Below, piece by piece: positions 18,002-58,824 of a stretch of 64,000 nucleotides of DNA (position 1 is its first letter; each line of letters begins with the position of its first letter). A program made the translations under genes and the position numbers. The stretch covers positions 192,001 to 256,000 of the forward strand of contig JAFGAR010000088.1 of NCBI GenBank assembly GCA_016933575.1. Direction: 5' to 3'. The DNA comes from Candidatus Thorarchaeota archaeon. Its GTDB lineage: Archaea > Asgardarchaeota > Thorarchaeia > Thorarchaeales > Thorarchaeaceae. The notes beneath the pieces were generated by a model. It was given only the letters and a program-made list of their open reading frames with translations, was not told the origin of the DNA and made no database searches.

Positions 18002-18076
18002 TGGTGCGACCGCCGGGATTTGAACCCGGGTCACAGGCTTGGGAAGCCTGCATCTTAACCCCTAGACAACGGTCGC
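18002..18076 (-). tRNA. tRNA-Gly(CCC), no intron, CCA encoded
   Basis: GCGACCG...CAGGC-TTCCCAA-GCCTG...GGTTCAAATCC...CGGTCGCACCA. Confidence 0.96.
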
Positions 18077-36820: not shown

Positions 36821-36842
36821 ACCCCTTCGTTTCCAGTGGAAC
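36821..36842 (-). promoter_or_regulatory. ORB (origin recognition box)
   Basis: Minus strand GTTCCACTGGAAACGAAGGGGT, the classical TCCA-TGGAAAC + G-string. Confidence 0.75.
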
Positions 36843-37124: not shown

Positions 37125-37781
37125 ATGGTATACTCTAAAGGTGAAAAGAAATTGAATGATGGAGACCGCACTAACAAGATCTATGAGTTTACCTATAGTT
37201 CTGCACCAGGTCTCCGGGAGATTTTTCAATGTAAATATGTAAGCCCGAGTGAAGCTCTTAACAGATTTAGTAAGATACTTTCCTTGACTGAATCGCCCTT
37301 TGATTTCAAAATTGTTGTGTCAGATGAAACAATGGGAGAAGAATCTAGTTTTCAGGTAAAAGGTGGGAGTATTGAAGAGATGTTCGCTAAGTTCAAAGTC
37401 TTTCTGGAAACAAGCACTGGGTTCACCTTTGAAGATGTTGTAAGTGAAATACAAGATACTGATTATGATGAAGCACGATTTGATACTATGAGTAATTATG
37501 AAAAGATGCAGCTAATCATCTATGCATCTTTTAAACATGGGAAATTTTCATCATTGGATGTGGCAGAAATATATGAGGATTCATTCAATGAAGACCTACC
37601 GAAGAGTACTGCTTCGACATATCTAGCTAGAATGTGGAATAACGGAAAAGGGCATTTGGAACGGTATGGAAATCGATCTGGATACACCTATCGACTCAAA
37701 ACAGAACTAAAGGAAGTTCAAAAAGAAACAGATAGGGCAGAAGAGCTTCTTGCAGCAATCCAGATGCGAGTCCGCGATTAG
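37125..37781 (+). CDS. Hypothetical protein with C-terminal winged helix
   Basis: FSSLDVAEIYEDSF..LPKSTASTYLARM..LERYG..YTYRL wHTH pattern. Confidence 0.7.
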   Translation: MVYSKGEKKLNDGDRTNKIYEFTYSSAPGLREIFQCKYVSPSEALNRFSKILSLTESPFDFKIVVSDETMGEESSFQVKGGSIEEMFAKFKVFLETSTGFTFEDVVSEIQDTDYDEARFDTMSNYEKMQLIIYASFKHGKFSSLDVAEIYEDSFNEDLPKSTASTYLARMWNNGKGHLERYGNRSGYTYRLKTELKEVQKETDRAEELLAAIQMRVRD

Positions 37782-37821
37782 TCTATTTTATAATAGCTCC
37801 TCTGCATTTGTATTTGTTGTA

Positions 37822-39138
37822 TTACAAATCCATAGTATGTTCTTCAAGTGCGATATCTAGACCAGCGAGCTCTTCAAGAATTGGTTCATAAATCTCTGGA
37901 ATGATTGGTCGATATACTCCTGTAAGATTTATTCTTCCTTCGAGTATCATTCTACTGGCAATAGCCACTGGAAGTGCAACAGTTCGTGACATAGAACTAT
38001 CTCCGTTAGGAATACCATAGTCAATGAGGGTTGAGGTGATTTTTTGCTTCTTTCCAGGATATTCCACAATGAACTCATGATGCATGACAATCATATCACG
38101 CTCGCCAGGTGTGTATTGCATCTTCTCTTCGAACAAATGGCAGAGTGCGTCGAGTCTCGTGTTTATACCTGATGGAATCAGTCTTTCTTCAAATAGTCCT
38201 AACCATTCAAGACGTGTAATAATTTGGTGATTAATATCAATTTTACAGAATTTTGCCACTGCTTCTTTGATGTCATTGCTTCCTGCAGATGTCAATTCCT
38301 GAATCATTGCGGCATATGTTATCCCATCTAAAGATCGTTCTTCAATATCGAGCAGACCTAAATCAGCAATTTTATCGAGCGTTTCACACCAACCAACATT
38401 TCTGAATGTACCTCTAAGCATGGTCTTTGTTTCTGGAATGTTGTAAATGTCAATGTAGGACATACTGTCTCGATTAGGATACCCTTCGAATGTACCGATT
38501 CCAGGGACCTCCATGAGTTCATAGTTTTCGAAGAGCTCAGCTCCAGGTATTTTGACATCTTTACCATCACGGAGGAAATGAGCATCGTTTCTCCCAGCAA
38601 GAAGAACACCCCGAGGACTCCATGATAGTTTGTATCCATAGGGATTGTTGTTCGAATCGGGTGCAGGGAGTCCACCTGTAAAAGATGTGAAGCTTGCAAT
38701 TTTTCCGCCATTATCATGAACATTGTCAATGATTTTCATAGCGCTCATGTGATCTATACCAGGATCAACACCGCATTCATTGAGCAATAAAACACCTGCA
38801 GACTTTGCGTCTTTCTCTAGAGCTTTCATCTCATCTGAAATATAAGAAGTGGTACAGAATGGTTTCTTGTGTTTAATTGCAACTTTTGCAGCTTTCACAT
38901 GGTATGTGTATGGAAGAAGAGAACAGACAAGATCAACCTTTGCAGTTAGTTCCTCGAGAAGATTATCATCTTTTGCGATATTGAAAGCAAGAGCTTCAGC
39001 ATTTTCACAGCCCTTAATCAGACGTTCAGCCTTCTCCTTTGTTCTACTAGCAACCAATACATGGAAGCCGTTCTCACTCAAATAGTGGATATAAGGACGG
39101 GCTACAAGCCCGGCACCTAGACAGAGTACTTTTTTCAT
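37822..39138 (-). CDS. Saccharopine dehydrogenase (L-glutamate-forming, Lys9/SDH type)
   Basis: LGAGLVA, ECGVDPGIDHM, YKLSWSPRG, YPNRDS, MSRTVALP. Confidence 0.92.
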   Translation of the reverse strand: MKKVLCLGAGLVARPYIHYLSENGFHVLVASRTKEKAERLIKGCENAEALAFNIAKDDNLLEELTAKVDLVCSLLPYTYHVKAAKVAIKHKKPFCTTSYISDEMKALEKDAKSAGVLLLNECGVDPGIDHMSAMKIIDNVHDNGGKIASFTSFTGGLPAPDSNNNPYGYKLSWSPRGVLLAGRNDAHFLRDGKDVKIPGAELFENYELMEVPGIGTFEGYPNRDSMSYIDIYNIPETKTMLRGTFRNVGWCETLDKIADLGLLDIEERSLDGITYAAMIQELTSAGSNDIKEAVAKFCKIDINHQIITRLEWLGLFEERLIPSGINTRLDALCHLFEEKMQYTPGERDMIVMHHEFIVEYPGKKQKITSTLIDYGIPNGDSSMSRTVALPVAIASRMILEGRINLTGVYRPIIPEIYEPILEELAGLDIALEEHTMDL

Positions 39139-40457
39139 TTGGTTTTGTCCTCCCTCAATAGATACTCATTGAGATATTGATAACTCGGGGTTAGTTTTCC
39201 ACGATAAACAATAACTGCATCTTTTAGCTCCCTAGGCAGATTGACTTCATCAATAGAAGGAGCTTTAAAGTCAGCATTTGCAAAATCGGGAAGAAAACGG
39301 ATTAGTGTTTCACCAAAGGATGTTGATGATTCCCGCGGAAGTTCGCATGGGAGATTATCAACTGCCATGATAACAGGACCTTCTCCTATAACACCTGTTT
39401 CAGCACGATCTTCATCAATTATATAACAAAAAGCAGGTTTTCCGGGCGTAGTACACTTGACAGTGAACTCGATTGCACCTCCGACATCACATGAGATGTC
39501 ACCGATGACGCGGAGTTTTCGATTAGCTTCATTCCAATGCTTGCGAATAAAGTCCTTTGTTATCAGTCGTGGATATTTATCAGTCCAATAGATACAATTC
39601 ATGATAACTGTCATGTATTGAACATACTCATGAAACACGCCAGTGTAGTTTTTCTTCCCATTCTTGTAATAGTCCTGAAGATTAAAATCAGAGTTTGGAT
39701 CTTTTGGTTTCACTAGGTGCTCTTCTTTAAAGATGCATTTATACAAGAGATTCTGCTCTGGTTCAAGATTTGGCAAATCAGCAGGTTCCACTATTTTGTG
39801 TGGGAGAATGTCGAATATTTCTTGAGCTCCCCGCGACACGTTACCATAGCCTGCAAAACCAACTACAAACGGAATCAATTCCTTTGGAAGACCTTGTTCC
39901 TTAATCTGATTCCCGATACGTCCGAATTCTGCCTTAACAGCATCTAAGCCCTTTAGATCTAATGTAGATTTCATCTGTCTAAAGGGATTGGGGCTGATAC
40001 CCTCAAATTCAAGACGTTTTCCAAGAACACGAAAAGTATCAGAGATACCTGCCATTCCAGCCCAGTTTCCAAAGAATATCAAACGACGACCTTTGTCATC
40101 TGTAACTCGTTCATAATCAATCAGAGTGGCGCCTGTTTCTATAATATTCCGGAGTAGAGGCATATTGTACGCCTGCCCTTTGATAGTGTGGCTGAAGAAT
40201 ACATAGACTGCATCGCTCTCAAAGAATCCAATAGGCATTTCCTTGATTCCGAAAATTACAGGAACACCGCTTCCCTTCAAAGGTTTGATAGTTGCTCCAA
40301 CTTGCGCATATTCTTCTTCTGTAAAAGCGCGTTGATCATTGGGTTCAACAACGAAATCGATGCCGCTTTGTTCTCGCAAAAACTTGACTTGATCGGGTGT
40401 TAATGGAACTCGTGCTTCAAATGCTTTTTCTTCCTTACGTAAACCGATGCGGTTCAT
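39135..40457 (-). CDS. Lysine-ketoglutarate reductase / saccharopine dehydrogenase (LKR/Lys1 type)
   Basis: EARVPLTP, FFSHTIKGQAYNM, IDYE, DISCD, MAVDNLPCELPRESS. Confidence 0.9.
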   Translation of the reverse strand: MNRIGLRKEEKAFEARVPLTPDQVKFLREQSGIDFVVEPNDQRAFTEEEYAQVGATIKPLKGSGVPVIFGIKEMPIGFFESDAVYVFFSHTIKGQAYNMPLLRNIIETGATLIDYERVTDDKGRRLIFFGNWAGMAGISDTFRVLGKRLEFEGISPNPFRQMKSTLDLKGLDAVKAEFGRIGNQIKEQGLPKELIPFVVGFAGYGNVSRGAQEIFDILPHKIVEPADLPNLEPEQNLLYKCIFKEEHLVKPKDPNSDFNLQDYYKNGKKNYTGVFHEYVQYMTVIMNCIYWTDKYPRLITKDFIRKHWNEANRKLRVIGDISCDVGGAIEFTVKCTTPGKPAFCYIIDEDRAETGVIGEGPVIMAVDNLPCELPRESSTSFGETLIRFLPDFANADFKAPSIDEVNLPRELKDAVIVYRGKLTPSYQYLNEYLLREDKTK

Positions 40458-40582
40458 GCAATTTCCTCCAGAGCCAGATAATGACCGAAGCTGTTCTGAG
40501 GCTGCGAGCCAAGCTACTGACGCTTAACCTTTTCCCTGCCGGCCATGACCAGTATTTGTTGTATTACACAATTTGAAAATCA

Positions 40583-40594
40583 GAACATGTGTTC
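40583..40594. promoter_or_regulatory. GAACATGTGTTC near-palindrome
   Basis: One-mismatch variant of the GAACACGTGTTC motif, upstream of the 40616 ORF. Confidence 0.5.
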
Positions 40595-40615
40595 TTCAAT
40601 TTGGGTTTCAAGATA

Positions 40616-40912
40616 ATGTCAGCTACGTATCTCTATCTCTATGACTGTCGACGGGCAAGACAAACAAATGCACGTCGAGTTGCATTTACTAAGGAGCTCT
40701 ATGGGTATACATATACTTGGAAAACAAAATCAGGGGTTAGAGAAAAACGCAAGCCAGGTCTCTTGGATGAGTGTCTTGGAACTGAAGCTGTGGCGGACTC
40801 GGCAATTCTAGTACCTAATGAACACCGAACGATTTTTGACAGTCTGTTTTCGACCTATCAAGATATTCTCAAACTCAAAGTCTATGAAATTGTACAAGAG
40901 ATCTTTCAATGA
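40616..40912 (+). CDS. Small hypothetical protein, possible Cas2/VapD-like ferredoxin fold
   Basis: YLYLYD...RRVAFTKELYGY...GLL...DSAILVP pattern. Confidence 0.6.
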   Translation: MSATYLYLYDCRRARQTNARRVAFTKELYGYTYTWKTKSGVREKRKPGLLDECLGTEAVADSAILVPNEHRTIFDSLFSTYQDILKLKVYEIVQEIFQ

Positions 40913-40918
40913 GATTTG

Positions 40919-41196
40919 GAACACGTGTTCGAGTTAATCTCATGCAAAGATGTTTCCAGATAATGGTTGTAGATTATGTGGATAATACCCCTTCATTTCC
41001 TATGGAAATGGAAAAATGGAGTGATCATGAGCGGTCATTCTAATAATGATAAAAATGGAGATAAATAAGAGCTGTGTAAACAACTATTTATACTTATTGA
41101 TAACTATTCTAATAGACTTCTGATTAATATTTCTAGTGGAAATGATGGGGTACTATAGAACTTAGAACACGTGTTCTAATGTATTACATGTATTAC
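40919..41196. other. Probable replication origin (oriC)
   Basis: Inverted ORB-like boxes 40987-41008 and 41130-41151 around an AT-rich ~120-bp core, bracketed by GAACACGTGTTC at 40919 and 41165. Confidence 0.7.
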
Positions 41197-41298
41197 GGAT
41201 ATAAAGAAACCTAGTAGACAAAAATAATCCAATACCACAAGACTGATACAGTGTTCTTAATGCAAACCGGCATACGTTAGAAAGTGGAGGATCCATGA

Positions 41299-43191
41299 TT
41301 GGCGAAACCTCAAGAATTGCTTGAAGACACACCTGGAAAAGAAGTACTACTTCTAGCGAACGAGGCGATTGCTCGTGGAGTGTTAGAGGCTGGAGTTCGA
41401 CTTGTTTCTCTCTATCCAGGCACACCTAGCAGCGAAATTGGAAACAATCTTACTTTCATGGCACCGCATATTCCAAATTTCTACTTTGAATTCAGTACAA
41501 ATGAAAAGGTAGCCTTGGAAGTTGCTGGAGCTGCTGCAGTGGCTGGTGTTAGATCCATGATGGTCTGTAAAGGACCTGGACTGAATGTTGCCGCAGATCC
41601 ATTCTTTTCTCTTGCATACGTAGGAGTACGCGCTGGAATGGTCATTGTTGTTGCTGATGATCCTAGTATGTGGAGCTCACAAAATGAGAATGATAGTCGA
41701 TATTATGCATTAATGGGAAACATGCCAATGATGGAACCTGCAGATCCTATCGAAGCAAAATCAATGCTACTTGAAGCATTCAAGTTTTCTGAAATATTTG
41801 AACTTCCAGTTCTGTTTAGAACAACAACCCGTGTGAATCATACTAGAGCTCCCATAAGATATGGACCAATTCTTCCACGTCCTGACAAAGTAGAATTCAA
41901 AAAGGATCCTTTCAGATTTGTACCAATTCCATCCGTTGCTAGAACTAGACATCCATGGTTACTTGCTCAAATCGAGAAAGCACGAGAAGTATCTGAAACC
42001 AGTCCTCTTAATTTTACAGAGGGTCAAGGAGATTTAGGAATTATTACTAGTGGTGTTTCATATAATTATGTGAAAGAAGCTCTTGTTGTAATGAACCTTA
42101 AAGCTGAAGTCTTGAAGCTTGGAATCACTCATCCAATACCTGAGAAGAAGATTATTGATTTTCTTAAGCGACATAACAAGGTAGTCATCGTAGAAGAGCT
42201 TGAACCCTTCATCGAAACACATACTCGCCGATTATCACAGCTGCATTCTATCAAAGTGGAAATACTCGGCAAAGATCAGGGCTATTTCTCTCGTGTTGGT
42301 GAATACAGTCCTCGAATAGTTATGGAAGTCCTGTGCACAATTAATAATTGTAATACACCTATTAATTGGACAGAGATTGACAATAGAGTAGGAAAGATAC
42401 CCGACTTACCACCAAGACCTCCTCTGCTATGCGCAGGTTGTCCTCATCGAGCATCTTACTATGCCATTCGAACAGCAACTAGAGGAAAAGCAATCTATCC
42501 TTCTGATATCGGTTGCTATACTTTGAGTATAGCTCCGCCTCTGGAAACAGCAGACATTCTCTTTGATATGGGTTCGTCGATTTCTACTGCATGTGGAATA
42601 GCAGAAGTAACTGACCAAGATGTTGTAGCAACAATTGGCGATAGTACCTTCTTTGCATCCGGATTGCCCGGAATTGTTAATGCGGTATACAATCAACATC
42701 GAATTTGTCTTGTTGTTCTTGACAACAGAACAACAGCAATGACTGGGCATCAACCACATCCTGGTACAGGGATTACAGGTATGCAAAAGAAAGTTACACC
42801 TCTAGACATCGAAGATGTATGTAAGGGTCTCGGTGTGAAATATGTTAAAACAATCAATCCTTTTGAATCAGTAGCTGGTCTTGTTGGCGAAGTTCGAGAG
42901 ATGGTAAAATGGTCTAGAGAGAATCATAGTCCTGCAGTACTAGTTTCCAAAGAACCATGTGCTTTGCTGACAGCTGCTGATCGTCGTCGTCAAGGACTTA
43001 CTCCACCAAAATACTATGTTGATTCAGAAACATGTACTGCCTGCAAACGTTGCCTTAATCGTTTATCTTGTCCTGCAATGTACATGGACCCTGATACAGA
43101 AAAAGCAGTCATAGATGAAACACTCTGTAATCTATGTGGAACATGTGTAGCAGTCTGCCCTCAAGGTGCAATTAAGCAGGAGGGTAAATAA
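41299..43191 (+). CDS. iorA: Indolepyruvate:ferredoxin oxidoreductase alpha
   Basis: YPGTPSSE, NEKVALE, LCAGCPHR, GDSTF, TAMTGHQ, C-terminal ferredoxin. Confidence 0.95.
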   Translation: MAKPQELLEDTPGKEVLLLANEAIARGVLEAGVRLVSLYPGTPSSEIGNNLTFMAPHIPNFYFEFSTNEKVALEVAGAAAVAGVRSMMVCKGPGLNVAADPFFSLAYVGVRAGMVIVVADDPSMWSSQNENDSRYYALMGNMPMMEPADPIEAKSMLLEAFKFSEIFELPVLFRTTTRVNHTRAPIRYGPILPRPDKVEFKKDPFRFVPIPSVARTRHPWLLAQIEKAREVSETSPLNFTEGQGDLGIITSGVSYNYVKEALVVMNLKAEVLKLGITHPIPEKKIIDFLKRHNKVVIVEELEPFIETHTRRLSQLHSIKVEILGKDQGYFSRVGEYSPRIVMEVLCTINNCNTPINWTEIDNRVGKIPDLPPRPPLLCAGCPHRASYYAIRTATRGKAIYPSDIGCYTLSIAPPLETADILFDMGSSISTACGIAEVTDQDVVATIGDSTFFASGLPGIVNAVYNQHRICLVVLDNRTTAMTGHQPHPGTGITGMQKKVTPLDIEDVCKGLGVKYVKTINPFESVAGLVGEVREMVKWSRENHSPAVLVSKEPCALLTAADRRRQGLTPPKYYVDSETCTACKRCLNRLSCPAMYMDPDTEKAVIDETLCNLCGTCVAVCPQGAIKQEGK

Positions 43192-43806
43192 ATGAGTCGT
43201 AATACTAGTAATACAATTATCAACATAGCTATATCCGGCGTTGGCGGTCAAGGTGTCTTGACTCTTGCAGAACTTCTTGCAAAGGCAGCCCTGAAAGAAG
43301 GCTTGAACGTGCGGGTCGGTGAGATTCATGGAATGGCTCAACGAGGTGGTCATGTAGTATGTACCGTTAGAATCGGTGATGCTCACGGTCCAGTAATTGA
43401 CACAGGTACTGCAGATCTATTAGTTGGTTTTGAACCGGTTGAAACATTAAGAGAAATTCATCTAGTCAAAAGGGGTGGATATGTGCTGATGAGTTCACAT
43501 ATTCAATTTCCTGTAGCAGTATCTATGGGGAAGGCCAAGTACCCAAGTAATGATGAAATCCTAGACACAATCAAGACATTCACGAACAAGATTATTGAAT
43601 TCGATGCAATGGAGGTCGCCCGGAACTCAGGAAGTTCCAGAGCATTAAACATGGTCATGTTTGGTGGAATCATCGGCACTGGTCTTGTTCCAATTAGCAA
43701 AGATGCTGCTCTTCAAGTCATACGTGAATCGTTTCCCTCTAAATTTGAGAAAATAAACACAATTGCAGCAGAAACGGGTATCAACAAGGTCAAGCAATTG
43801 CTCTAA
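43192..43806 (+). CDS. iorB: Indolepyruvate:ferredoxin oxidoreductase beta
   Basis: GVGGQG, EIHGMAQRGG. Confidence 0.95.
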   Translation: MSRNTSNTIINIAISGVGGQGVLTLAELLAKAALKEGLNVRVGEIHGMAQRGGHVVCTVRIGDAHGPVIDTGTADLLVGFEPVETLREIHLVKRGGYVLMSSHIQFPVAVSMGKAKYPSNDEILDTIKTFTNKIIEFDAMEVARNSGSSRALNMVMFGGIIGTGLVPISKDAALQVIRESFPSKFEKINTIAAETGINKVKQLL

Positions 43807-43829
43807 TTATGTATTAATTGTATTACATA

Positions 43830-46190
43830 TTATGACCACTGATTGACGAACAGAGCTGCACTACTTGCAACTTGTCCTGCTGATACTCCACCATCGCCAG
43901 GTGGAATAATTGAATGAAATATAGGAACCAATCCAGACCGCTTCACTTGTTTCCCAATTGCTGATGTGATAATCCGATTAAGAGCCACCCCACCAGAAAA
44001 TCCAATATGTAACACTCCTTCTTCTTCAGCCACATCACAGGCAAGCTTTGCAAGACTCTCACCTAAATGCCATTGAGCGATATATGCAAGTTCCTTTCTA
44101 CTGACTCCTTTATTCTTGAGATCAAGAATCTCCAAGAGTGAATTAGTAGTGTCCAAAACAGGACCATAATCTGCTTCTACAAATCTTGGTTCGATTCTAA
44201 TATCACTAGGATGAGCGACTGCCTCCAATTTTATTGGACACTCACCATCATACGAGTTTTCTGAGCAAATATCCAGGGCAAGAGCTATAGCATCAAGAAA
44301 TCGACCAGCACTCGTACTTGAAATCGTGTTTATTCTCTGTCTTTCAGATTTGAGTAGAGTTTCCAATACTTGTTCAGAAATTGGTGTATTAGGTCCCACT
44401 TGGGATGATCCTAACATATCCAGGAGTTTCTTACTATCTATCTCTTCTCCAACAATTCCAATGAGTGATCGTGCAGCATAGACTGCAGACAAATCACCAC
44501 CTGTGTATACCTGAGAAACAAGCCCTCCTCTTCTCTCAGATTCTTCACAATTACCAACAAGAATCTCACCACCCCAAGCAGTTCCATCTGTTCCATATCC
44601 ATATCCATCAGCTGTAATACAAACAATACGACTATCACAGGGAATCACACCATCAACCATTACTGCTGCAAGATGTGCGTGATGATGTTGAATACGAAAG
44701 AGGGGAACATTGTTGCTGTTAGACAATCTTTGAGCCAATTCAGTGCTCAAGAATTCAGGATGCAAATCACAGGCAACAGCATCTAACTTATTGACATCAA
44801 GAAGATGTAACATATGTTCAATTGCATCAGAGAGAAAATCAATATTTTCTGATTGATCAGTATCTCCAATGTATTGTGTCATATATATTCGACCAGATTT
44901 TAGGACCGCCCCTGTTGTTTTTTCTTCTGGACCAACACCAATAATTCTGAGAGATCTCCATGGCCCGCCAAAGTGAAGTGGTTCTGGTACGTAGCCCCTT
45001 GCACGTCTGATGAAAACAGGACTTGTATCATCTAACAATTTGACAACTGAATCATCAGCCCGTTGATGGATCCTTCGGTTGTGAACTAAGAAATAATCGA
45101 CAATATCGCTCAGTTCACTCATTATTTTACTCGAATCAATGTACATAGGGACCCCAGTAGGGTTCGCACTTGTCATGACCAAAGCTGGTTCCTTAGTGTA
45201 CTTGAAAAGAAGATGATGCATTGGTGCGTATGGTAACATGACTCCGATACTGTCCAAGTTCGGAGCTATAGCATCTAAGACATCATGCTGTAATATCTGT
45301 AATACATTATTTTCAAAGTTCTTCTTCGCCAAGACTATAGGTCTTCTCCATGAAGTGAGAATTCTTTCTTCAACTTCATTGATATTAACGATACCTTTGA
45401 GAGTTTTCAAATCCCGAACCATAATCGCAAATGGTTGGGTTGGTCTTCCTTTTCTTAGTCTTAATCTATGAATTACTCTATGATCACTAGTCTTTGTTGC
45501 AATGTGAGTTCCAGATATTCCTTGAAGTGCGACTATCTTATCACGGTCAATTAGATTCGCAGTCATTTCAATTGGATTTCTATCAGAGACCGTTTCACTA
45601 TCTTTGTCAAGAAGTCGGTAAATTGGACCACACGTTTCACAGGCTGTTGTCTGAGCATGATATCTTCTATCAAAGGGATTTGTATAACCTGTATTACAAA
45701 TATTACATAATGGAAAATCTATCATAGTAGTATTTGGTCTATCGTAAGGAAGATCTGTAACAGTTGAGAACCTTGGTCCACACGCCGCACATGATGTGAA
45801 TGGGTAGAGATACCAATGAGATGTTGGATCATCTAGATCCCTGATGCAATCATCACAGATTGCAATGTCTGGTGGTAATACAGGAATAGCGTCTTTATTT
45901 CTCTCTGTTGAAGACTTACGGATTTCGAACTCTCTGAATACCTTCTGTGAATTTGACCATTGTACGTCGAGCGAATCTATCCTTGATATCGAAGGAGAAT
46001 CATGTTTAATATTCCAAATCAAATTTTGAATACTTTCTTCTTCACCTTCAACAATAATCTCAACACCTGCATCACCAAGATTCTTGACATAGCCATCAAG
46101 CGACAATGACTTTGCAATACGATAGATGAAAGGTCTAAATCCTACTCCTTGAACGATTCCAGTTACATGGATTGTCGCTTGTTTTTGCAC
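43830..46190 (-). CDS. hypF: Hydrogenase maturation carbamoyltransferase
   Basis: GIVQGVGFRP, CGPRF, HAQTTAC, QHHHAH, PGDGG. Confidence 0.96.
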   Translation of the reverse strand: MQKQATIHVTGIVQGVGFRPFIYRIAKSLSLDGYVKNLGDAGVEIIVEGEEESIQNLIWNIKHDSPSISRIDSLDVQWSNSQKVFREFEIRKSSTERNKDAIPVLPPDIAICDDCIRDLDDPTSHWYLYPFTSCAACGPRFSTVTDLPYDRPNTTMIDFPLCNICNTGYTNPFDRRYHAQTTACETCGPIYRLLDKDSETVSDRNPIEMTANLIDRDKIVALQGISGTHIATKTSDHRVIHRLRLRKGRPTQPFAIMVRDLKTLKGIVNINEVEERILTSWRRPIVLAKKNFENNVLQILQHDVLDAIAPNLDSIGVMLPYAPMHHLLFKYTKEPALVMTSANPTGVPMYIDSSKIMSELSDIVDYFLVHNRRIHQRADDSVVKLLDDTSPVFIRRARGYVPEPLHFGGPWRSLRIIGVGPEEKTTGAVLKSGRIYMTQYIGDTDQSENIDFLSDAIEHMLHLLDVNKLDAVACDLHPEFLSTELAQRLSNSNNVPLFRIQHHHAHLAAVMVDGVIPCDSRIVCITADGYGYGTDGTAWGGEILVGNCEESERRGGLVSQVYTGGDLSAVYAARSLIGIVGEEIDSKKLLDMLGSSQVGPNTPISEQVLETLLKSERQRINTISSTSAGRFLDAIALALDICSENSYDGECPIKLEAVAHPSDIRIEPRFVEADYGPVLDTTNSLLEILDLKNKGVSRKELAYIAQWHLGESLAKLACDVAEEEGVLHIGFSGGVALNRIITSAIGKQVKRSGLVPIFHSIIPPGDGGVSAGQVASSAALFVNQWS

Positions 46191-46348
46191 TGTAGTAGCT
46201 CCTTCACATTTTAATATTCAAACTAAATATTAATCCAATGACGTGGTCCTATAACGACTTAATGTATCGTAATACAAATAATACAATCATATATTCTACT
46301 TAGTATAGGTCCTCTTAAGGCTTGAAACATATAAACATCTGATCAGGC

Positions 46349-46762
46349 TTGACGACTAACACTCCTATCAAATCATTAGTTCACGAACCAGAGACAACCC
46401 CCTCAGTCTTAGCTTCAATTCCTGACAGTCTCAAGTATACACTTCTTGAGTCTATCAGTGTTGAGAAAAAATCAAGAAAATCAATACTTGTTTCAAGTAA
46501 CAATCTCACAAATCGTTTCATTCTATCAAGATGGGGAATTCGACCATCTCAGCGAAGGCGATACAAGAATCTATTTTCATCGATAAGAAAACACTGCCGA
46601 ATACTCTTTCAACATTATCTTCTTCGTGGACGTATAGAATGGATTGATAATTCAGGAAAACATCTCTTTGGTGTTTTCAAATTTGATGAAGTACGTGGCA
46701 ATCTAATCTTGGGATTTGTTCCAATGTCTCCAGAATCCGAATGGACTCTTTCTAATCGATGA
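46349..46762 (+). CDS. Hypothetical basic protein
   Basis: 137-aa ORF filling the intergenic space; no family recognised. Confidence 0.55.
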   Translation: MTTNTPIKSLVHEPETTPSVLASIPDSLKYTLLESISVEKKSRKSILVSSNNLTNRFILSRWGIRPSQRRRYKNLFSSIRKHCRILFQHYLLRGRIEWIDNSGKHLFGVFKFDEVRGNLILGFVPMSPESEWTLSNR

Positions 46763-46948
46763 CATCCATTAGCGTTTTCTGTAATACAAGTATCACAATA
46801 TTTAAAGAAGAGGAATAAGTTATCTACCTTTGTATACAATATTGTATCCGTGCAGAACAACAGACTTCACATTGAAGGAAATGCGTTATTGGTGGCTTAG
46901 AAGGCTTTTAGAAGCATTTTCTATCTACCATGAAGGAGCACTACCAGG

Positions 46949-47479
46949 ATGAACAATAATGATAAAAAAATGAGGGAGATAGCATCTGGAACAAAACAGG
47001 TATTACAAGAACCAATTCTTAGACTACTACAAGCCGGGTCTGTACTAAGTCTCCCACAGCTTGAAACACTTCTAATAGATTTGGTCATCGAAGACAACTA
47101 TGGTACTCATATCACTTATGATGATAAAGCATCTTTTAGATCCAAATCCGGAACTAGATCAAAAGGCGTTTCAAGAGGTGCATTCAATAGAACATTAAAA
47201 CAAGCCAGAAAAAATGTGACAAGGTGTCTCTATACAATGCTACTCCTTACTTACCTTGGTTTGTTTGAACTTACGATATTTCGTCCTTTCGAAGAAGTTG
47301 CAGCTCGTATCGGCGATTATCGTAGAATCAGAGAAATACTCGCAGGGAAGACAGACTTGAGTCAAGAGGATCTAGAAAGCATCAAAGTCACTGAACGTAC
47401 GATTATTGCAGCCTTAGAAGATTTAGTTTCATCTCTTGCATTAAAGACCGAAACTTCAAGAAGGAAACCTATGGAATAA
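46949..47479 (+). CDS. Hypothetical HTH-like protein
   Basis: GVSRGAFNRTLKQARKN resembles a recognition helix; GGAG upstream. Confidence 0.65.
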   Translation: MNNNDKKMREIASGTKQVLQEPILRLLQAGSVLSLPQLETLLIDLVIEDNYGTHITYDDKASFRSKSGTRSKGVSRGAFNRTLKQARKNVTRCLYTMLLLTYLGLFELTIFRPFEEVAARIGDYRRIREILAGKTDLSQEDLESIKVTERTIIAALEDLVSSLALKTETSRRKPME

Positions 47480-47564
47480 TTTGAAAATATGTATTATTTG
47501 TATTACATCATGAATTCTAGATAGTCCTAGAATTTTAGTCAGAGCTGTAAAAAAGAAACGGCTC

Positions 47565-47751
47565 GAGTGTGTCGTACAGAAGAAGCGCGACAGACATCTG
47601 GAATCACATTCCGGCACTAGCGCATTCAAGCTACCGTTAAGTCATCCTGGAGATTTTTTGAGGAGATAGAGATGACAATGAAAGTACCTGAAACGTCAGA
47701 GTGATTGTGATCCATCGACGTCAGCCTATCTTCCATTGTTACAACACACTC
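47565..47751 (-). ncRNA. Candidate ~190-nt multibranched structured RNA
   Basis: 12-bp terminal stem plus four internal stems; followed by TTTCTTTTTT on the minus strand. Confidence 0.55.
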
Positions 47752-47980
47752 ATACAATGACATGTAACAATTGTACATAGTTCTAATCTTAGAACGAGAA
47801 ATTCTAGGTCAAATCATCAAAGTCTTGGCGCGAAATTATATCGAAAGGATTAGAATCTCCATATATCTAATACTAGTAATACAAATAATACATTTTCTAC
47901 TCAATAGCACAATTAATCACATAAGTATGAGAACCATATCAAAAGTAAACCAATGATTATCAAAATCACGAGGTCCAGTA

Positions 47981-49210
47981 TTGTCTGAAGAAAAGAATCG
48001 TTCATCAATCCTGAAAGCCGCAAAAGACCGCGCAAGGCAATCAGAAATGCAATCAAATATTCAAATGATTACTGATGCCATTGGAGACCGAAGGGATCGC
48101 GACCTATTAGACATTCTTTCCCAATTGGAACAAGATACTGGTTGGCCAATCGCTCTCGAGTATCTACTTGAAGCAAAAGACTTTTGCTACTCACTTCCAA
48201 TTGGATCTGGTCCAATAAGGACTCAACTAGAACCCCTCAAGTATCGAGAGATGGTATTTTCCATTTTTTCATGTGATGGACTTGAGCCAATTATCACGCC
48301 TACCATTGAACTACTAACTCCTTTGAAAGACGAGCACTCCCTTCTGGATGCATCTCGCAAATTGCGCAACAGAATCGAGCAATTAGCTATGAATCAAATT
48401 CAATCTGGAGATACATTGTTTTTCGACTCTTCAGATTTTGGAATCTCATTTTCAAAAGAATTCTCAAACACACTTGATCAAATGATGAACAAACAAATCC
48501 ATGGACTGGTCTTGGAGAAACATAATGATGAGATTGACATCAGTCCTCTTTGGCAATATGAAACAGGTCGTTTAACATTATCAAAATTGGGAATTAGAGG
48601 GAAGGAGATAGATCTTGAAACTGCTAATCTAGTATTATCTGTAATACAACAACCAATCACAATCTCTAATTCTTCTACACACAATAGTTCCCCATTACAT
48701 CATCCAACAAATCCAAAATACAGGGAATTGCTTGACTGCATTATTGAACAGAACATCGATGGACTGCGTTCATTGTCAAGTAGACATTCTTACATTATAC
48801 TAAAACAACTATTAGAGGAAGCAATAGATCGATATGCTCAAACATCATCAAGTCTAGATTATAGACGAATTCTAAATCTTATCAATGCTCATGTCAGAAT
48901 CCGAACTCCAGAATCAATTCAATTACTTCAACTTCTCATAAATCACAAGGATATACGTATTGCATCTGTGGCAATCACGGCTTTGGGCAACTTCTATCAC
49001 GAGTCAGCTGTATATGTCTTGGTGGATTCTTTATGTGATACCAAAAATATGGAGATTGTAAGAAGAACCACAGCTGCAATCAAAACCATTGCACGAAGGT
49101 GTCCAGAAACCAATTATGTAATCATGCAAGCTCTTGAATCTGCATGTACACACAAAGCTCGATTACGACATATACAGAAGGAAATTGGCAAGCAAAAGGC
49201 TTTGTATTAA
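47981..49210 (+). CDS. Hypothetical protein with C-terminal HEAT repeats
   Basis: ASVAITALGNF...AVYVLVDSL...IVRRTTAAI HEAT-like helices. Confidence 0.7.
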   Translation: MSEEKNRSSILKAAKDRARQSEMQSNIQMITDAIGDRRDRDLLDILSQLEQDTGWPIALEYLLEAKDFCYSLPIGSGPIRTQLEPLKYREMVFSIFSCDGLEPIITPTIELLTPLKDEHSLLDASRKLRNRIEQLAMNQIQSGDTLFFDSSDFGISFSKEFSNTLDQMMNKQIHGLVLEKHNDEIDISPLWQYETGRLTLSKLGIRGKEIDLETANLVLSVIQQPITISNSSTHNSSPLHHPTNPKYRELLDCIIEQNIDGLRSLSSRHSYIILKQLLEEAIDRYAQTSSSLDYRRILNLINAHVRIRTPESIQLLQLLINHKDIRIASVAITALGNFYHESAVYVLVDSLCDTKNMEIVRRTTAAIKTIARRCPETNYVIMQALESACTHKARLRHIQKEIGKQKALY

Positions 49211-49274
49211 TAGTATTACATGTATTTTATTACTCTCGACAGACATAAATCGTATTCGTATCAGGCGTCAGATT

Positions 49275-50660
49275 ATGACAGGTTCTCATGACGAAATTTT
49301 CCAAAGTATTGATCCTTTCTTCAACCCAAAACGTGTAGCTTTAGTTGGTGCATCTGCAGACTATCGGAAACTAGGGAATTCAATTCTAATGAATCTCTTA
49401 GCTTCAGAAATTGAAGTGTATCCAATAACTCATAGCAGAGAACACGTTCTTGGAGTAAAAGCATACCCCAGTCTTTCTAATTTGCCAGAACCTGTTGATC
49501 TTGTGATAGTGGTAGTCGCTGCTAGACATTGCCCTCCACTAATGTCGGAGATAAGAAAGGCTGGAGCTAAGAATGCTGTGATAATATCTGGTGGGTTTAG
49601 TGAGACCGGTCCTGAGGGGCAGGAACATGAAAGAGAATTGGTAAAAGCAGCAAGAGATTCAAATGTAAGAATAATTGGTCCTAATTGTGTTGGCGTTTCT
49701 AATAGTCGTCTCTTTAATGGTACCTTTACAATGATGCCAGAAAGAGGAAATATCGCATTTGTATCTCAGAGTGGTGCTCTTGGAGGTATGAGTATATACA
49801 CAACAAGAGCGAAAAGAATCGGAATGAGTAAATTTGCAAGCATTGGTAATTCAGCTGATGTAGGATTCGTTGAAATCTTGGATTACTTCACACAAGACTC
49901 TAAGTCAACTGTAATTGCAGTGTATATTGAAGGTGTCAATGATGGGCGTGCATTATTTGAATCACTTCAAAGAGCAGCCGTAGTGAAACCAGTTGTTGTA
50001 TTAAAAGGTGGAAGAAGTGAAGCCGGAGGACATGCAACCCAATCGCATACTGGTTCTCTTGCCGGTTCATCACAAATCTTTGATGGGATGCTTCGTCAAG
50101 CTGGTTGTGTGACAGCTCCCACTCTTGACACACTTTTTGAAATATGCAAGCTCTTTGATTATCAACCTCTCCCCAGAGGTTGTAATATTGGTATTATTAG
50201 TAATACAGGAGGAGCAGGAGTACTAGCAACAGATTCTGCTTCAGTATCTGGACTATCTATTGCTTCATTTGAGGACGAAACAAAACACGAATTACGTCAA
50301 GTATTGTCACCCATAGCATCTGTCAATAATCCTATCGATGTTGTTGCAAGTGGTGGAAGGAGAGAATATCGAATTGCCACGGAGCTTCTTCTGAAAGATC
50401 CAAATGTAGACATGCTGCTTGTCATTTGTGGAGTACCAACATTTGCAGGAATGACACAGACAGAACACGCGGCAGGGACTCTTGAAGGTGTAAGGATGGC
50501 TTCAACTGAGAAACCTGTTATCGGAGTATGGCTTGCAGGTGACGTTGGAAAACCTGGCAAGGATTTGTTAGAAATGAACAGAATCCCATGCTTCGATGAT
50601 CCTGCCTTGGCTGCACTCTGCATGTCGCGAATTGCTGAATATGCTAGGAATCACAAATAA
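49275..50660 (+). CDS. acdA: ADP-forming acyl-CoA synthetase alpha subunit
   Basis: FNPKRVALVGAS, IIGPNCVG, SQSGALG, SHTGSLAG, NPID. Confidence 0.92.
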   Translation: MTGSHDEIFQSIDPFFNPKRVALVGASADYRKLGNSILMNLLASEIEVYPITHSREHVLGVKAYPSLSNLPEPVDLVIVVVAARHCPPLMSEIRKAGAKNAVIISGGFSETGPEGQEHERELVKAARDSNVRIIGPNCVGVSNSRLFNGTFTMMPERGNIAFVSQSGALGGMSIYTTRAKRIGMSKFASIGNSADVGFVEILDYFTQDSKSTVIAVYIEGVNDGRALFESLQRAAVVKPVVVLKGGRSEAGGHATQSHTGSLAGSSQIFDGMLRQAGCVTAPTLDTLFEICKLFDYQPLPRGCNIGIISNTGGAGVLATDSASVSGLSIASFEDETKHELRQVLSPIASVNNPIDVVASGGRREYRIATELLLKDPNVDMLLVICGVPTFAGMTQTEHAAGTLEGVRMASTEKPVIGVWLAGDVGKPGKDLLEMNRIPCFDDPALAALCMSRIAEYARNHK

Positions 50661-50693
50661 CGATGTATGTAATACAAATATTACAACACTGGA

Positions 50694-50993
50694 CTACTTG
50701 AGATATTCCTCTGCGATTTGGGGAAATTGTCTTGTTATTGCTTCACGAAGCTGTTGCTCAACCCACATACTCAGATTAATTGCATTATTCTTTCGAATAG
50801 CTTTTAGACATGCTCGAAGATCCATTGGTATTGAAAATGATACAATAGGACTCTTTCGTTCCTTATTGGGTACAGCCGCAAGCATCTCAGTTGTCTTTGT
50901 CAAAGCTTGTGATTCACGAGAAACTGATTTTGTGGTTGGACTCTCTTCTTCTTTTTCAGCTTCTTCACGTCTATATTTTCCAAGTAGACTCAT
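50694..50993 (-). CDS. Ribbon-helix-helix DNA-binding protein with disordered N-terminal tail
   Basis: IVSFSIP beta strand, MDLRACLKAIRK helix, INLSMWVEQQLREAI helix; starts 1 nt after the ATPase stop. Confidence 0.7.
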   Translation of the reverse strand: MSLLGKYRREEAEKEEESPTTKSVSRESQALTKTTEMLAAVPNKERKSPIVSFSIPMDLRACLKAIRKNNAINLSMWVEQQLREAITRQFPQIAEEYLK

Positions 50994-50994
50994 A

Positions 50995-51975
50995 TTATTG
51001 TACCTCCTTGAGTAGGGATGCATAAGCCTCAGCAACAAGTTCAGCAATCTCTTGGGTCACAGTTGGATCATTATTTTTCCTAAGAGTTTCAGCTGCTACT
51101 TGTTGGCACCCACGTGCTAACATTCTGATATCGCGTGGGTTTCCTTTTGCTGCATCATTAATCACTTTGATTGCATCTTCACTGAATGGATAGACTTCAA
51201 AAGTATCAGGGTTGAAACTGTCTATCCTTCCTTGCGCATATGCAATTCTTCTACCAATGAACTCTCGTGCTTTCTCTGTACTAAGTGGTGGTACGTCAAG
51301 TGGCTCAGTACGATCAGCAATCTGTGGTAAGAATGATAACATAGCATTCCAATACATCGTAGTTCCAGACATGACCAATGTGACAATTGGTTCATCAAGA
51401 ACTTGAGACTTGCCATATGTATCAACCATTTCTTCCGTAGGCAAATCTGCTAGATAACGAAGTTTGTGAAATGCTGCTTCTTGATTATCTGCAACATCTT
51501 CAATGAATAATGCAGTCCTACTTTTTTCTTCGATATATCTTCTTAGACTTTCTTTTGCTACTGCATCAATTATTTGACTTGATTCCCATGATCTCTTGTA
51601 TTTCACTCTCAGTGAGTCTGCAATAGCTGCTGCCATTTGTTTCTCATAGAGTCCAGTCATTCCCACATATCCAGTGACGAATTTATTCCCTCGTCGATCT
51701 GCCAATGTAGGAAGGTCTCTTAGTGCCAAAAGCATTAGTGTACTCTTACCCGATCCGACTGGCCCCCTGATGAAAACATGCCTCTCGTTTGTGATTATCA
51801 AATCGACAATGGAATCCAAGAAGTTACTATCCTCGATATACAATCGGCTGTCAGGCATTTTGAAACCGCGAAATGGTGAAAACCTAGCACCAATTCTCTC
51901 TTCCCATGCTCGCAGGACTTCTTTACGAGTGTTAAAGTGTCGAATCAATGCACTTTCATGGATAGCAATCGTCAT
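50995..51975 (-). CDS. ExeA/TnsC-like AAA+ ATPase
   Basis: FSPF, GPVGSGKST, LFIED, LVMSG, IADR, PLS..FIGRRI, PFSEDAI..AKGNPRDI. Confidence 0.8.
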   Translation of the reverse strand: MTIAIHESALIRHFNTRKEVLRAWEERIGARFSPFRGFKMPDSRLYIEDSNFLDSIVDLIITNERHVFIRGPVGSGKSTLMLLALRDLPTLADRRGNKFVTGYVGMTGLYEKQMAAAIADSLRVKYKRSWESSQIIDAVAKESLRRYIEEKSRTALFIEDVADNQEAAFHKLRYLADLPTEEMVDTYGKSQVLDEPIVTLVMSGTTMYWNAMLSFLPQIADRTEPLDVPPLSTEKAREFIGRRIAYAQGRIDSFNPDTFEVYPFSEDAIKVINDAAKGNPRDIRMLARGCQQVAAETLRKNNDPTVTQEIAELVAEAYASLLKEVQ

Positions 51976-52196
51976 TTGCGTGGACCTCTATTCTCTGAAA
52001 TCATCGTATCACAAGTAGTGCTTGTAATACAATTTTTCATTTACGAATTCTGATATAAAAGGTGTGGTAAAAAGCTCCCGGAAGCGAATGATCGTTAAAG
52101 AACAGATTCTCCAATACGCAACCTTTTTGAATAGAATAAGATGGCAAGTACGCTGACCAACAAATTGGTCTTGAGCTCAACTAGGAGCTGTCTGAC

Positions 52197-52475
52197 ATGG
52201 ATATTGAACGTATTAAGCATATCATGAACTCTTTGATGATATTATCATTTCTCATATTCGGAGGACTATCTGCAATCATTCTGATTACAGATGTGCGTCT
52301 GAATAATGCAACTGTATCATTACCATTTGCTTTTCTGTTCATTTCCATGATCACATTCATTATTACAGGTCAGATTAACGATAAGCCTAAACTCGCACAG
52401 AAATATCTAAGAGATTGGCTCATCATCTGCACAATTGGAATAATTATCAGCAGTCTTGCGTTTACAATCTACTAA
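52197..52475 (+). CDS. Small three-TM membrane protein
   Basis: Three hydrophobic segments; AGGAG RBS. Confidence 0.7.
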   Translation: MDIERIKHIMNSLMILSFLIFGGLSAIILITDVRLNNATVSLPFAFLFISMITFIITGQINDKPKLAQKYLRDWLIICTIGIIISSLAFTIY

Positions 52476-52510
52476 GTTTCTCCTGCTTCTCAAGTATCGA
52501 AGTGATACAT

Positions 52511-53146
52511 ATGAGTAAGATTCTACCTGGTACAAAGACAACTCGGATGGAGCTTCTTGCTCTAAAGAATAGAATGAAGCTTGCTGAAAGAGGTCATGAT
52601 CTTCTTAGAGAGAAACGTGACTCATTGATAATGGAGTTCTTCAATGCCATAGCTGAAATCAAAGAAGCCCGAGAGAAGGTAGATTCAACTCTGTCTGATG
52701 CATTTTCTGCACTAACACAAGCAAAGATGGTTATGGGTCCTGCTAGAGTAATTGAGTTTGCCTATGCTAGTAAGTTCGAAGCTGATCTCAATATCGCTAC
52801 TAGATCTATGATGGGCGTAAGAGTTCCAGTTCTATCTGTTGAACAACGGAGTCCTGAATTGCCTTATTCTCTTTCAGACTCAAGTACCAAATTTGATGTA
52901 ATGGGTGAGAAATTTAAAGAAGCGCTAAAAGCAATAGTTCGTCTGGCAGAAATTGAATCAACAGTTAAACGCCTTGCCTTAGAAATTGAAAGGACGAAAA
53001 GACGTGTATCAGCTCTTGAAACAGTTGTTATCCCACGACTTGATGCAACAGTCCGTTTTGTAAAACTTGCTCTCGAAGAACGCGAACGCGAAGATTTCGT
53101 GCGACTCAAGATGGTTCGGGATTGGATAACTGCTGAGGAAGAATGA
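52511..53146 (+). CDS. atpD: A/V-type ATP synthase subunit D
   Basis: TRMELL, GHDLLREKRD, EIERTKRRVSALE, LEEREREDF. Confidence 0.95.
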   Translation: MSKILPGTKTTRMELLALKNRMKLAERGHDLLREKRDSLIMEFFNAIAEIKEAREKVDSTLSDAFSALTQAKMVMGPARVIEFAYASKFEADLNIATRSMMGVRVPVLSVEQRSPELPYSLSDSSTKFDVMGEKFKEALKAIVRLAEIESTVKRLALEIERTKRRVSALETVVIPRLDATVRFVKLALEEREREDFVRLKMVRDWITAEEE

Positions 53147-53182
53147 CGAAATGTATTACTAGTAATACAATATAGTTATGAC

Positions 53183-58714: not shown

Positions 58715-58824
58715 GGGCCGCTAGTCTAGCCCGGCTATGATGTCTCGTTTACACCGAGAATTATACCGAGTTTAATACTAGGTATTCTCGAGGGTCGCTG
58801 GTTCAAATCCGGCGCGGCCCACCA
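58715..58824 (+). tRNA. tRNA-Val(TAC) with 32-nt intron at ~44/45 (58761-58792), CCA encoded
   Basis: GGGCCGC/GCGGCCC acceptor; TCTCG-TTTACAC-CGAGA arm; BHB with CGAG/CTCG central helix. Confidence 0.9.

Follow-up and report, generated by a model that had tools for sequence, protein, structure and literature searches.

The locus and its repeat arrays

We analysed a stretch of 64,000 nucleotides from a Thorarchaeota archaeon (the window; G000:C64:192001-256000, in an assembly of 3.47 Mb and 215 contigs), the homologues of whose proteins carry the label Thorarchaeota (Asgard archaea). Between 37.8 and 53.2 kb it contains a field of short tandem repeats, a candidate replication origin with inverted origin recognition boxes (ORB), and a two-gene operon encoding an AAA+ ATPase and a small partner resembling ribbon-helix-helix (RHH) proteins. 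The original prediction had seen in these elements a candidate origin-linked partition system driven by a new kind of motor.

The window has 32 copies of the palindromic heptamer GTAWTAC (5.0 expected), 24 of them within 37.8-53.2 kb. As a double unit, GTAWTAC-NN-GTAWTAC with at most one mismatch, it gave 16 matches where 0.03 are expected, all within 41181-53168. At one mismatch or less per unit, 14 arrays of two or three units were delimited; three weaker arrays start at 37810, 40552 and 52006. The whole assembly holds 245 heptamers, and 14 of its 16 arrays with at least one perfect unit are at this locus; the other two, on C150 and C166, are about the number expected by chance, so that this genome-wide scan upholds the claim that the repeats cluster here alone. 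The phasing of the units is strict: in 12 syntenic loci, 125 unit pairs are offset by 9 bp and 20 by 18 bp, with none at 8, 10 or 11 bp, and the array consensus is T-GTAWTAC-WW-GTAWTAC-A. Three other sources of such repeats were rejected, namely chance or AT-rich composition (by shuffles), a genome-wide promoter or terminator motif (arrays being absent elsewhere in the assembly) and debris of miniature inverted-repeat transposable elements (MITE) or other mobile elements (by positional conservation and exact phasing).

The operon has the predicted arrangement, a single base separating the ATPase stop codon from the start of the partner gene. Upstream of the ATPase start lies an operator-like triple, announced as three repeats, of which one unit is perfect (GTAATAC) while GTATCAC carries one mismatch and GTAGTGC two; its outer units are conserved in all nine aligned relatives. 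The double repeat predicted just past the operon is likewise present, with one mismatch. On the coding strand of ten aligned genomes, a TATA-like box is followed about 22 nt later by GTATTAC-AA-GAAGTAC-TT-GTGATAC. Because of this spacing the transcription start is predicted to fall inside the operator, which supports the proposed overlap of operator and promoter, the promoter role of the box being deduced from the alignment. Positions of all these elements are collected in Table 1.

Table 1. Sequence features of the origin region and operon, numbered from the first letter of the window.
Feature	Position	Strand	Context
Third ORB box	36822-36841	+	perfect match to local consensus; 4 kb from the ORB pair
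Weak array GTATTTG-TT-GTATTAC	37810-37825		convergent gap unk218/saccharopine dehydrogenase; same gap occupied in L024 and L027
Weak array GTATTTG-TT-GTATTAC	40552-40567		divergent gap AlaDH/P3small
Three GAACAYGTGTTC palindromes	40583-40594, 40919-40930, 41165-41176		bracket P3small and the ORB pair
P3small, 98 aa	40616-40912	+	no known family
Candidate oriC core	40988-41150		gap P3small/iorA; inverted ORB boxes flanking about 120 bp of AT-rich DNA
ORB box CCCCTTCATTTCCTATGGAA	40988-41007	+	
ORB box CCCCATCATTTCCACTAGAA (ORB2)	41131-41150	-	
Array, two perfect units	41181-41196		adjoins ORB2 and a TATA-like box, upstream of iorA
Array, two perfect units	43199-43214		iorA/iorB junction
Array	43811-43826		convergent gap iorB/hypF
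Array	45290-45305		within hypF, variable region; kept in 4 of 9 aligned relatives
Three-unit array	45682-45706		within hypF; conserved across genera
Array	46269-46284		divergent gap hypF/unk137
Array	46781-46796		after unk137
Array	47491-47506		after unk176
Three-unit array	47867-47891		upstream of HEAT-repeat gene
Array	48632-48647		within HEAT-repeat gene
Array	49204-49219		junction of HEAT-repeat and acetyl-CoA synthetase genes
Three-unit array	50182-50206		within ADP-forming acetyl-CoA synthetase gene, GIISNT codons; synonymous sites near-invariant
Array, one mismatch	50669-50684		convergent gap acetyl-CoA synthetase gene/RHH gene
Partner (RHH-like) protein, 99 aa	50694-50993	-	start one base past ATPase stop codon
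AAA+ ATPase, 326 aa	50995-51975	-	
Operator-like triple GTATCAC-AA-GTAGTGC-TT-GTAATAC	52006-52030		upstream of ATPase start
TATA-like box TTTTATATC	52052-52060	-	about 22 nt upstream of operator; conserved block in 10-genome alignment
Array, two perfect units	53153-53168		convergent gap atpD/NAC gene

The genes between 36 and 56 kb form an ordinary metabolic and housekeeping set: saccharopine dehydrogenase, a dehydrogenase of the alanine dehydrogenase (AlaDH)/PNT type, the indolepyruvate:ferredoxin oxidoreductase IorAB, HypF, two proteins of unknown family with 137 and 176 amino acids (unk137 and unk176), a HEAT-repeat protein, ADP-forming acetyl-CoA synthetase (acs), the ATPase and its partner, a 92-amino-acid membrane open reading frame (ORF), A-type ATP synthase subunit D (atpD), NAC, a Trm5/Tyw2 methyltransferase and PAN. 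The subunit D gene and the membrane ORF (52197-53146 (+)) stay together in all relatives, and no other ATP synthase subunit was present among the ORFs scanned in 36-56 kb. Rfam and tRNA scans of the same interval returned no known RNA. Outside it, Rfam reported a tRNA match of 107 nt at 58715-58821 (+), unreported by ARAGORN, which is probably a tRNA containing an intron.

Conservation of the arrays and selection on their sequence

The order of genes over 17 kb is kept in 11 genomes of the same genus, and with it the places of the arrays: the convergent gaps iorB/hypF, acs/RHH and atpD/NAC, several 5' gaps, and the interiors of hypF, acs and the HEAT gene. Five genomes with a completeness of 93-99% each have 80-93% of their pattern matches in this one locus of 12-15 kb. 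A further 45 genomes, representing 16 genera of the family, mostly have 10-25 matches compared with 0-7 for a reversed-pattern control, a few being at or below the control, and in the family genomes whose match positions were listed the matches adjoin the ATPase gene. Genomes with no ATPase match (G005, G088 and G194, and G020 with a marginal profile hit only) have array counts at control level, which is also what is expected if the contig is simply missing and is not independent evidence.

The predicted multi-site field is specific to one family, distant lineages retaining one to three heptamers at the operon only. Heptamers just upstream of the ATPase gene occur in G025, G030 and G040 as well, where the ATPase is 29-67% identical; no clear heptamer array was seen upstream of the Odin operon. 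A search by k-mer enrichment for another clustered motif in the G025, G030, G040 and Odin loci yielded none, the enriched words being codon-usage artefacts. Since the field is specific to the family, the ancestral core consists of operon, operator and origin linkage, and the array field is a later elaboration.

Arrays occupy all four convergent gaps of the locus, and gene interiors and promoters too, about half of all sites being located where a promoter is not expected. For the 20 codons lying under intragenic arrays, the majority-codon fraction in codon alignments was 0.27 above the background of their own genes, a value reached in 0 of 20,000 permutations; array 45290, in the variable part of hypF, was omitted from this pooled test. 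The intragenic arrays are thus conserved at synonymous sites, i.e. under selection as DNA.

These positions bear on the possibility of a local regulon, in which the RHH protein would be an autoregulated repressor in the manner of MetJ or CopG, acting on the neighbouring metabolic operons (iorAB, ADP-forming acetyl-CoA synthetase, hypF, and the saccharopine and alanine dehydrogenases) with the ATPase as a signal-sensing co-regulator, and in which the proximity of the origin would be incidental. Tandem short palindromes are indeed typical RHH operators and many arrays lie in 5' intergenic regions, those at the ATPase promoter and upstream of iorA abutting TATA-like boxes, but the intragenic and convergent 3' sites, which make up about half, are conserved and under synonymous constraint. 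Whereas iorAB, acs and hypF could share a theme of amino-acid fermentation, the array-flanking atpD, NAC and trm5 have no common pathway; no regulon site occurs elsewhere in the 3.5-Mb genome, and the linkage of operon and origin persists where the metabolic genes are not neighbours. We therefore consider this explanation improbable.

The candidate replication origin and its neighbours

By sequence criteria, the candidate core is a canonical archaeal origin, in agreement with the probable oriC foreseen in the field. Its ORB pair is conserved in 12 of 12 aligned genomes (the window and 11 relatives), together with two to four GAACAYGTGTTC palindromes and one heptamer array, and the ORB boxes of the locus are the only strong matches in the assembly except one on contig C7. 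Analysis of GC skew along the window and along the 268-kb contig gave no clear origin signal.

Linkage of operon and origin was followed in six lineages belonging to four Asgard families, with ORB positions in a fifth. Between the ATPase gene and the best ORB cluster the distance is 1-15 kb in G000, G025, G026, G030, G063, G100 and G147, as determined by genome-wide scans for G026, G030, G063, G100 and G147; in G030, the ORB pair adjoins orc1/cdc6, the ATPase operon being 1 kb from the pair and orc1/cdc6 on its other side. A genome-wide scan of G026, which is complete (1.4 Mb), detected one ORB pair only. As the best ORB cluster is near the ATPase even in distant genomes, the linkage of operon and origin has outlived the rest of the gene order. 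The predicted co-occurrence of gene pair, repeats and ORB origin was thus recovered in relatives. In the published Odinarchaeum genome, the origin was chosen by skew alone.

The inverted ORB arrangement recurs in five more lineages (G025, G026, G030, G037 and G040), and in all Asgard lineages examined, G000 among them, P3small or its homologue adjoins the boxes. This protein may be a widespread origin-associated factor. Its neighbours in the protein atlas belong to unnamed archaeal clusters (Aenigmatarchaeota, Methanobacteriota). Perfect 12-bp GAACAYGTGTTC palindromes, of which the assembly has 13 copies, look like the site of a dimeric helix-turn-helix (HTH) protein; they stand beside the ORBs in G025, G030 and G040, not in Odin-type genomes.

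A second origin-like element was noticed on contig C7 of the same assembly (C7:90035-90190), where a GAACACGTGTTC palindrome is combined with an AT-rich stretch of about 90 bp and an ORB box that has a G-string; no orc1/cdc6 gene and no heptamer array was found nearby. The assembly has two genuine orc1/cdc6 genes, at C64:156272 and at 16587-17792 (-) of the window. The latter paralogue (TIGR02928, 301 bits) is 23 kb from the ORB origin, with a tRNA-Gly just upstream (18002-18076 (-)). No ORB-like box was found beside either gene.

The ATPase

The ATPase has a Walker A motif GPVGSGKS, a Walker B motif LFIED, an invariant R222 as candidate arginine finger and, at sensor 2, a GNPR motif in which R281 is invariant. 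Its profile matches are all below threshold (AAA_22, 23.8 bits for a cut-off of 27; ExeA-like TIGR03015, 28.2 for 324.5; Orc1/Cdc6 TIGR02928, 15.9 for 181.3; also AAA_16 and NB-ARC). Its AlphaFold (AF2) model, with a predicted local distance difference test (pLDDT) of 90, matched Cdc6/Orc1 structures with Z 18.6-19.4 over 250-268 residues at 11-16% sequence identity, DNA-bound ShCAST TnsC with Z 18.4 and MuB filaments with Z 17.5, clamp loaders and Clp ATPases following at about Z 15. Foldseek also placed Cdc6/Orc1 at the top, with the TnsC/MuB group at a template modelling (TM) score of 0.67 by target. In terms of modelled fold, TnsC and MuB are effectively tied with Orc1/Cdc6, and the fold by itself does not argue for initiation. 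The chain stops with the lid, at residue 326, and lacks a winged-helix domain, the Orc1/Cdc6 alignments stopping at chain residues ~279-296 of 379-382.

An NTPase that is neither ParA, actin nor tubulin had been predicted, and the modelled protein does fall in the AAA+ group of Orc1/Cdc6, TnsC and MuB. The proposed likeness to ExeA, TnsC and MuB fared less evenly: TnsC and MuB are borne out by fold, whereas ExeA is represented by a sub-threshold profile match only, and TnsC and MuB are no closer than Orc1/Cdc6. JGI labels homologues of the ATPase 'ExeA'; this label is an annotation artefact. The scores are far below cut-offs, and neither a peptidoglycan-binding domain nor secretion genes are present.

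The family is very small, with 26 of 1.84 billion cluster representatives at E < 0.001. Identity is 75-92% among full-length Thorarchaeota matches and 87-90% within the genus, which places the ATPase among the best-conserved proteins of the locus. Strong full-length homologues were found in six other families of the phylum, including the 1.4-Mb Odin-type genomes, and sampling of several others yielded none. It is a vertically inherited gene of housekeeping character. A distant homologue (25% identity) was seen on a Halobacterium noricense plasmid (NZ_CP089469.1, 279828-281406; L038), where it is followed, with an overlap of a few bases, by a 145-amino-acid winged-helix (ArsR-like) protein, i.e. 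the same layout of AAA+ protein and small DNA binder with a different DNA-binding fold.

A selfish or defence element, whether a toxin-antitoxin or defence pair of RHH antitoxin and ATPase or MITE-like repeat debris, is largely refuted, and we regard it as extremely improbable. RHH proteins are common as antitoxins (the atlas neighbours of the partner include HicB) and there are weak PADLOC matches, but these concern the P-loop only (E > 0.005), as do those to PHROGs, where no match extends beyond the P-loop (best E 0.0014). The ATPase gene is single copy; 22 of the 24 genomes in the genus have it, as do 41 of the 43 in the family, with identities of up to 92% and a fixed syntenic place amid housekeeping genes. 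Neither a transposase nor TniQ nor transposon ends were found among its neighbours, and the locus showed no integrase. The repeats, 16-25 bp long, in exact phase and positionally conserved, lack terminal inverted repeats.

Fold and genomic position together bring in control of the origin itself. The winged-helix-less, Orc1/Cdc6-like AAA+ protein would be an accessory initiator, or a helicase-loading or licensing factor, brought by the RHH protein, and the arrays a loading platform, titration sink or sequestration zone tuning the firing of oriC. Cdc6/Orc1 gives the best fold matches (in Z and in Foldseek), although TnsC and MuB tie with it in Z. Origin linkage is maintained in the five families examined, with the G030 operon 1 kb from the ORB pair and opposite orc1/cdc6, and the origin's own intergenic region always holds an array; yet the sites extend over 15 kb, mostly far from the AT-rich unwinding stretch and unlike initiator sites, and the ORB-plus-palindrome locus on C7 has no arrays. 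The haloarchaeal plasmid homologue, paired with a separate winged HTH protein, recalls a split Orc1/Cdc6, while the operon layout and tail motif at our locus match partition cassettes. On balance we judge origin control unlikely, though the fold and the close adjacency in G030 keep it in contention.

The partner protein

Alignment of 12 partner orthologues revealed an invariant N-terminal LGKYR, then a variable linker of acidic and polar character, and a conserved block at the C-terminus, in which residues ~48-90 form an RHH-like strand-helix-helix domain. In the AF2 model (pLDDT 59), residues 1-54 have no regular structure, and an extended segment is given besides helices at 55-68 and 76-89; this monomer is too uncertain for a fold search. 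Several structure neighbours of the partner in the protein atlas are unnamed, and its feature and structure neighbours with a family name are all of RHH type (CopG, Arc, ParG, HicB; TM 0.60-0.72). The partner is therefore likely an RHH protein with a predicted disordered N-tail, as had been proposed.

The order of ATPase gene and small-protein gene is kept in families f1, f2, f7 and f3, and in each of them the partner, inspected by eye, resembles RHH proteins. The small proteins of G025, G030 and the Odin-type G026 show the strand-helix-helix pattern after a long tail. Profile comparison between the Thorarchaeal RHH protein and its G030 counterpart gave E 0.77, which is not significant, so that homology of the partners across families is positional only. 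Prediction of the ATPase-RHH complex from two alignments (A1 and A2) scored 0.00, which gives no verdict and was counted neither for nor against.

Two further proteins of unknown family lie near the pair. Sequence-wise HTH-like, unk176 (46949-47479 (+); counterparts L034:9333-9842 and L035:11308-11799) has homologues accompanying the ATPase in other Asgard families: the G030 one shares an operon with ATPase and RHH, and those of Odin-type genomes lie immediately upstream of the ATPase gene. It may be a third component of the system. The 218-amino-acid unk218 (37125-37781 (+); counterpart L034:13254-13778) is an origin neighbour in distant lineages as well, and its G030 homologue gives a weak winged-helix match (Penicillinase_R).

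A candidate system for segregation or organisation of the origin domain

Tentatively, and somewhat short of an even chance, we propose that the locus is a system for segregating or organising the origin domain in Thor-type Asgard archaea, built like a partition cassette. Dimers of the RHH-like protein would bind the tandem palindromic units cooperatively, one dimer per 7-bp unit with a 9-bp period, as do MetJ, omega and ParG. Some 15 arrays, extending 3 kb to one side of oriC and 12 kb to the other, would turn the origin region into one protein-coated, centromere-like domain, and the array over the transcription start would make the operon autoregulated. The AAA+ protein, related to Orc1/Cdc6, TnsC and MuB and devoid of a DNA-recognition domain of its own, would form an ATP-dependent ring or filament on duplex DNA, and the disordered RHH tail with its invariant LGKYR would recruit it to the arrays or trigger ATP hydrolysis there. 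As a result, the origin domain would be given a position or direction for segregation, or be compacted and organised.

TnsC and MuB form ATP-dependent assemblies on duplex DNA that are disassembled by a partner protein (PDB entry titles and general knowledge). Since the fold relatives of the ATPase assemble in this way and TnsC and MuB are removed by a partner, a ParA-like role is mechanically plausible by analogy.

Several observations weigh against our proposal. To our knowledge, no partition system has an AAA+ NTPase, and the motor role is drawn by analogy only; in addition, the genome has seven ParA/MinD-like P-loop matches, on other contigs or far from the locus, and a conventional system is possible. 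The partner has a low-confidence model and no match in Pfam, NCBIfam, PHROGs, PADLOC or PDB, including a profile search against PDB in which SegB was represented. Other candidate DNA binders are close by, and unk176 (HTH-like), unk218 (winged HTH-like) or P3small could read GTAWTAC instead. Several arrays are at promoter-relevant positions. The field is confined to one family: the other Asgard families, and G025, which is of the same order and has a 67% identical ATPase, show 0-3 matches, and G025, G030, G040 and Odin-type genomes possess operon and origin yet have 0-3 heptamers nearby, from which it follows that the field is not essential to the conserved core function.

Close to the proposed system stands a chromatin domain or boundary, for which the arrays would nucleate a protein-coated domain serving as SMC/condensin loading site or insulator, and the AAA+ protein would remodel or load without moving DNA. 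In its favour are the density and regular distribution of the sites without regard to transcription units, the presence of ring loaders (ORC/Cdc6 and clamp loaders, for instance) in the AAA+ group, and the chromatin-like higher-order structures adopted by SegB-DNA complexes (PMC8682754). Among the genes of the locus, however, neither SMC nor kleisin nor any other known partner was noticed, and the idea overlaps with segregation or organisation to the point that sequence cannot separate the two. As an explanation distinct from ours it seems quite improbable.

It is a bolder and rather doubtful step to regard the ATPase as a fourth class of DNA-segregation NTPase, an initiator-related AAA+ protein on DNA, patterned by an RHH adaptor over a 15-kb field enclosing the origin. 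If true, this would be an Asgard-specific machine physically coupling origin and centromere, and might foreshadow the non-replicative, chromatin-organising roles of eukaryotic ORC-family ATPases. Should the ATPase be a motor or organiser, an AAA+ class related to replication initiators would join the ParA, actin-like and tubulin-like partition NTPases; should it regulate the origin, it would be a new archaeal factor of initiation control. Either way, archaeal chromosome architecture gains a new feature in a conserved repeat field that is strictly confined to a single origin region. The locus also offers a testable set of elements: a defined candidate origin, about 15 candidate arrays and two small, highly conserved proteins.

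Comparison with known systems

In the literature we found work on SegAB, HpaAB and ParABS, and no description of an AAA+/RHH pair or of origin-flanking repeats in Asgard archaea. Bacterial chromosomal ParABS systems have multiple centromere sites within about 15 kb around the par operon, close to oriC. The arrays described here likewise cluster over about 15 kb near oriC, but the locus has neither a ParB/CTPase fold nor ParA, and RHH-type heptamer arrays take the place of 16-bp parS sites.

Archaeal Orc1/Cdc6 is the best structural match of the modelled ATPase over the AAA+ base and lid, and the ATPase gene is linked to an ORB origin; it differs in having no C-terminal winged-helix, a TIGR02928 score far under the cut-off and true orc1/cdc6 genes elsewhere on the contig. 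TnsC, MuB and TniB share with it the fold group, a similar size and the lack of a sequence-specific DNA-binding domain; unlike them, our ATPase is not in a transposon and its synteny is fixed across 16 genera. With ExeA/GspA-type AAA_22 ATPases there is weak profile similarity only, and the locus has no peptidoglycan-binding domain or secretion genes.

Among ParA-type features, the deviant Walker A (KGGxxK) and the ParA/MinD fold are absent, the ATPase having GPVGSGKS and an AAA+ fold; a candidate DNA-binder gene downstream of the NTPase gene and repeats beside the operon do appear to be there, as an operator upstream and an array just downstream. Plasmid partition cassettes of type Ib (ParF/ParG of TP228, delta/omega of pSM19035) and type II (ParM/ParR) have the same order, NTPase first and then a small RHH-type binder with a flexible N-tail, and the same short phased tandem repeats with one set over the operon promoter (family properties: PMC8682754 and general knowledge). 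They differ in the NTPase, which here is AAA+ with a classical Walker A rather than a deviant-Walker ParA or an actin, and in that our candidate locus is chromosomal and has about 15 arrays dispersed over 15 kb instead of one centromere.

The centromere binders SegB, ParG and omega are of RHH type, and the unstructured N-termini of SegB and ParG activate their own NTPases (PMC8682754). Sulfolobus SegAB is, like our locus, archaeal and chromosomal, and its RHH protein SegB, whose unstructured N-terminus activates the NTPase (PMC8682754), binds a repeat upstream of its own operon and further chromosomal sites (PMC8682754, PMC12139799). The predicted domain order of the RHH-like protein is that of SegB; the profile search against PDB detected no sequence relationship between them. 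The two systems also differ in that SegA is ParA-like whereas the ATPase here is AAA+, and in that SegB sites are scattered over the chromosome whereas the arrays of the Thorarchaeal locus are confined to the neighbourhood of the origin.

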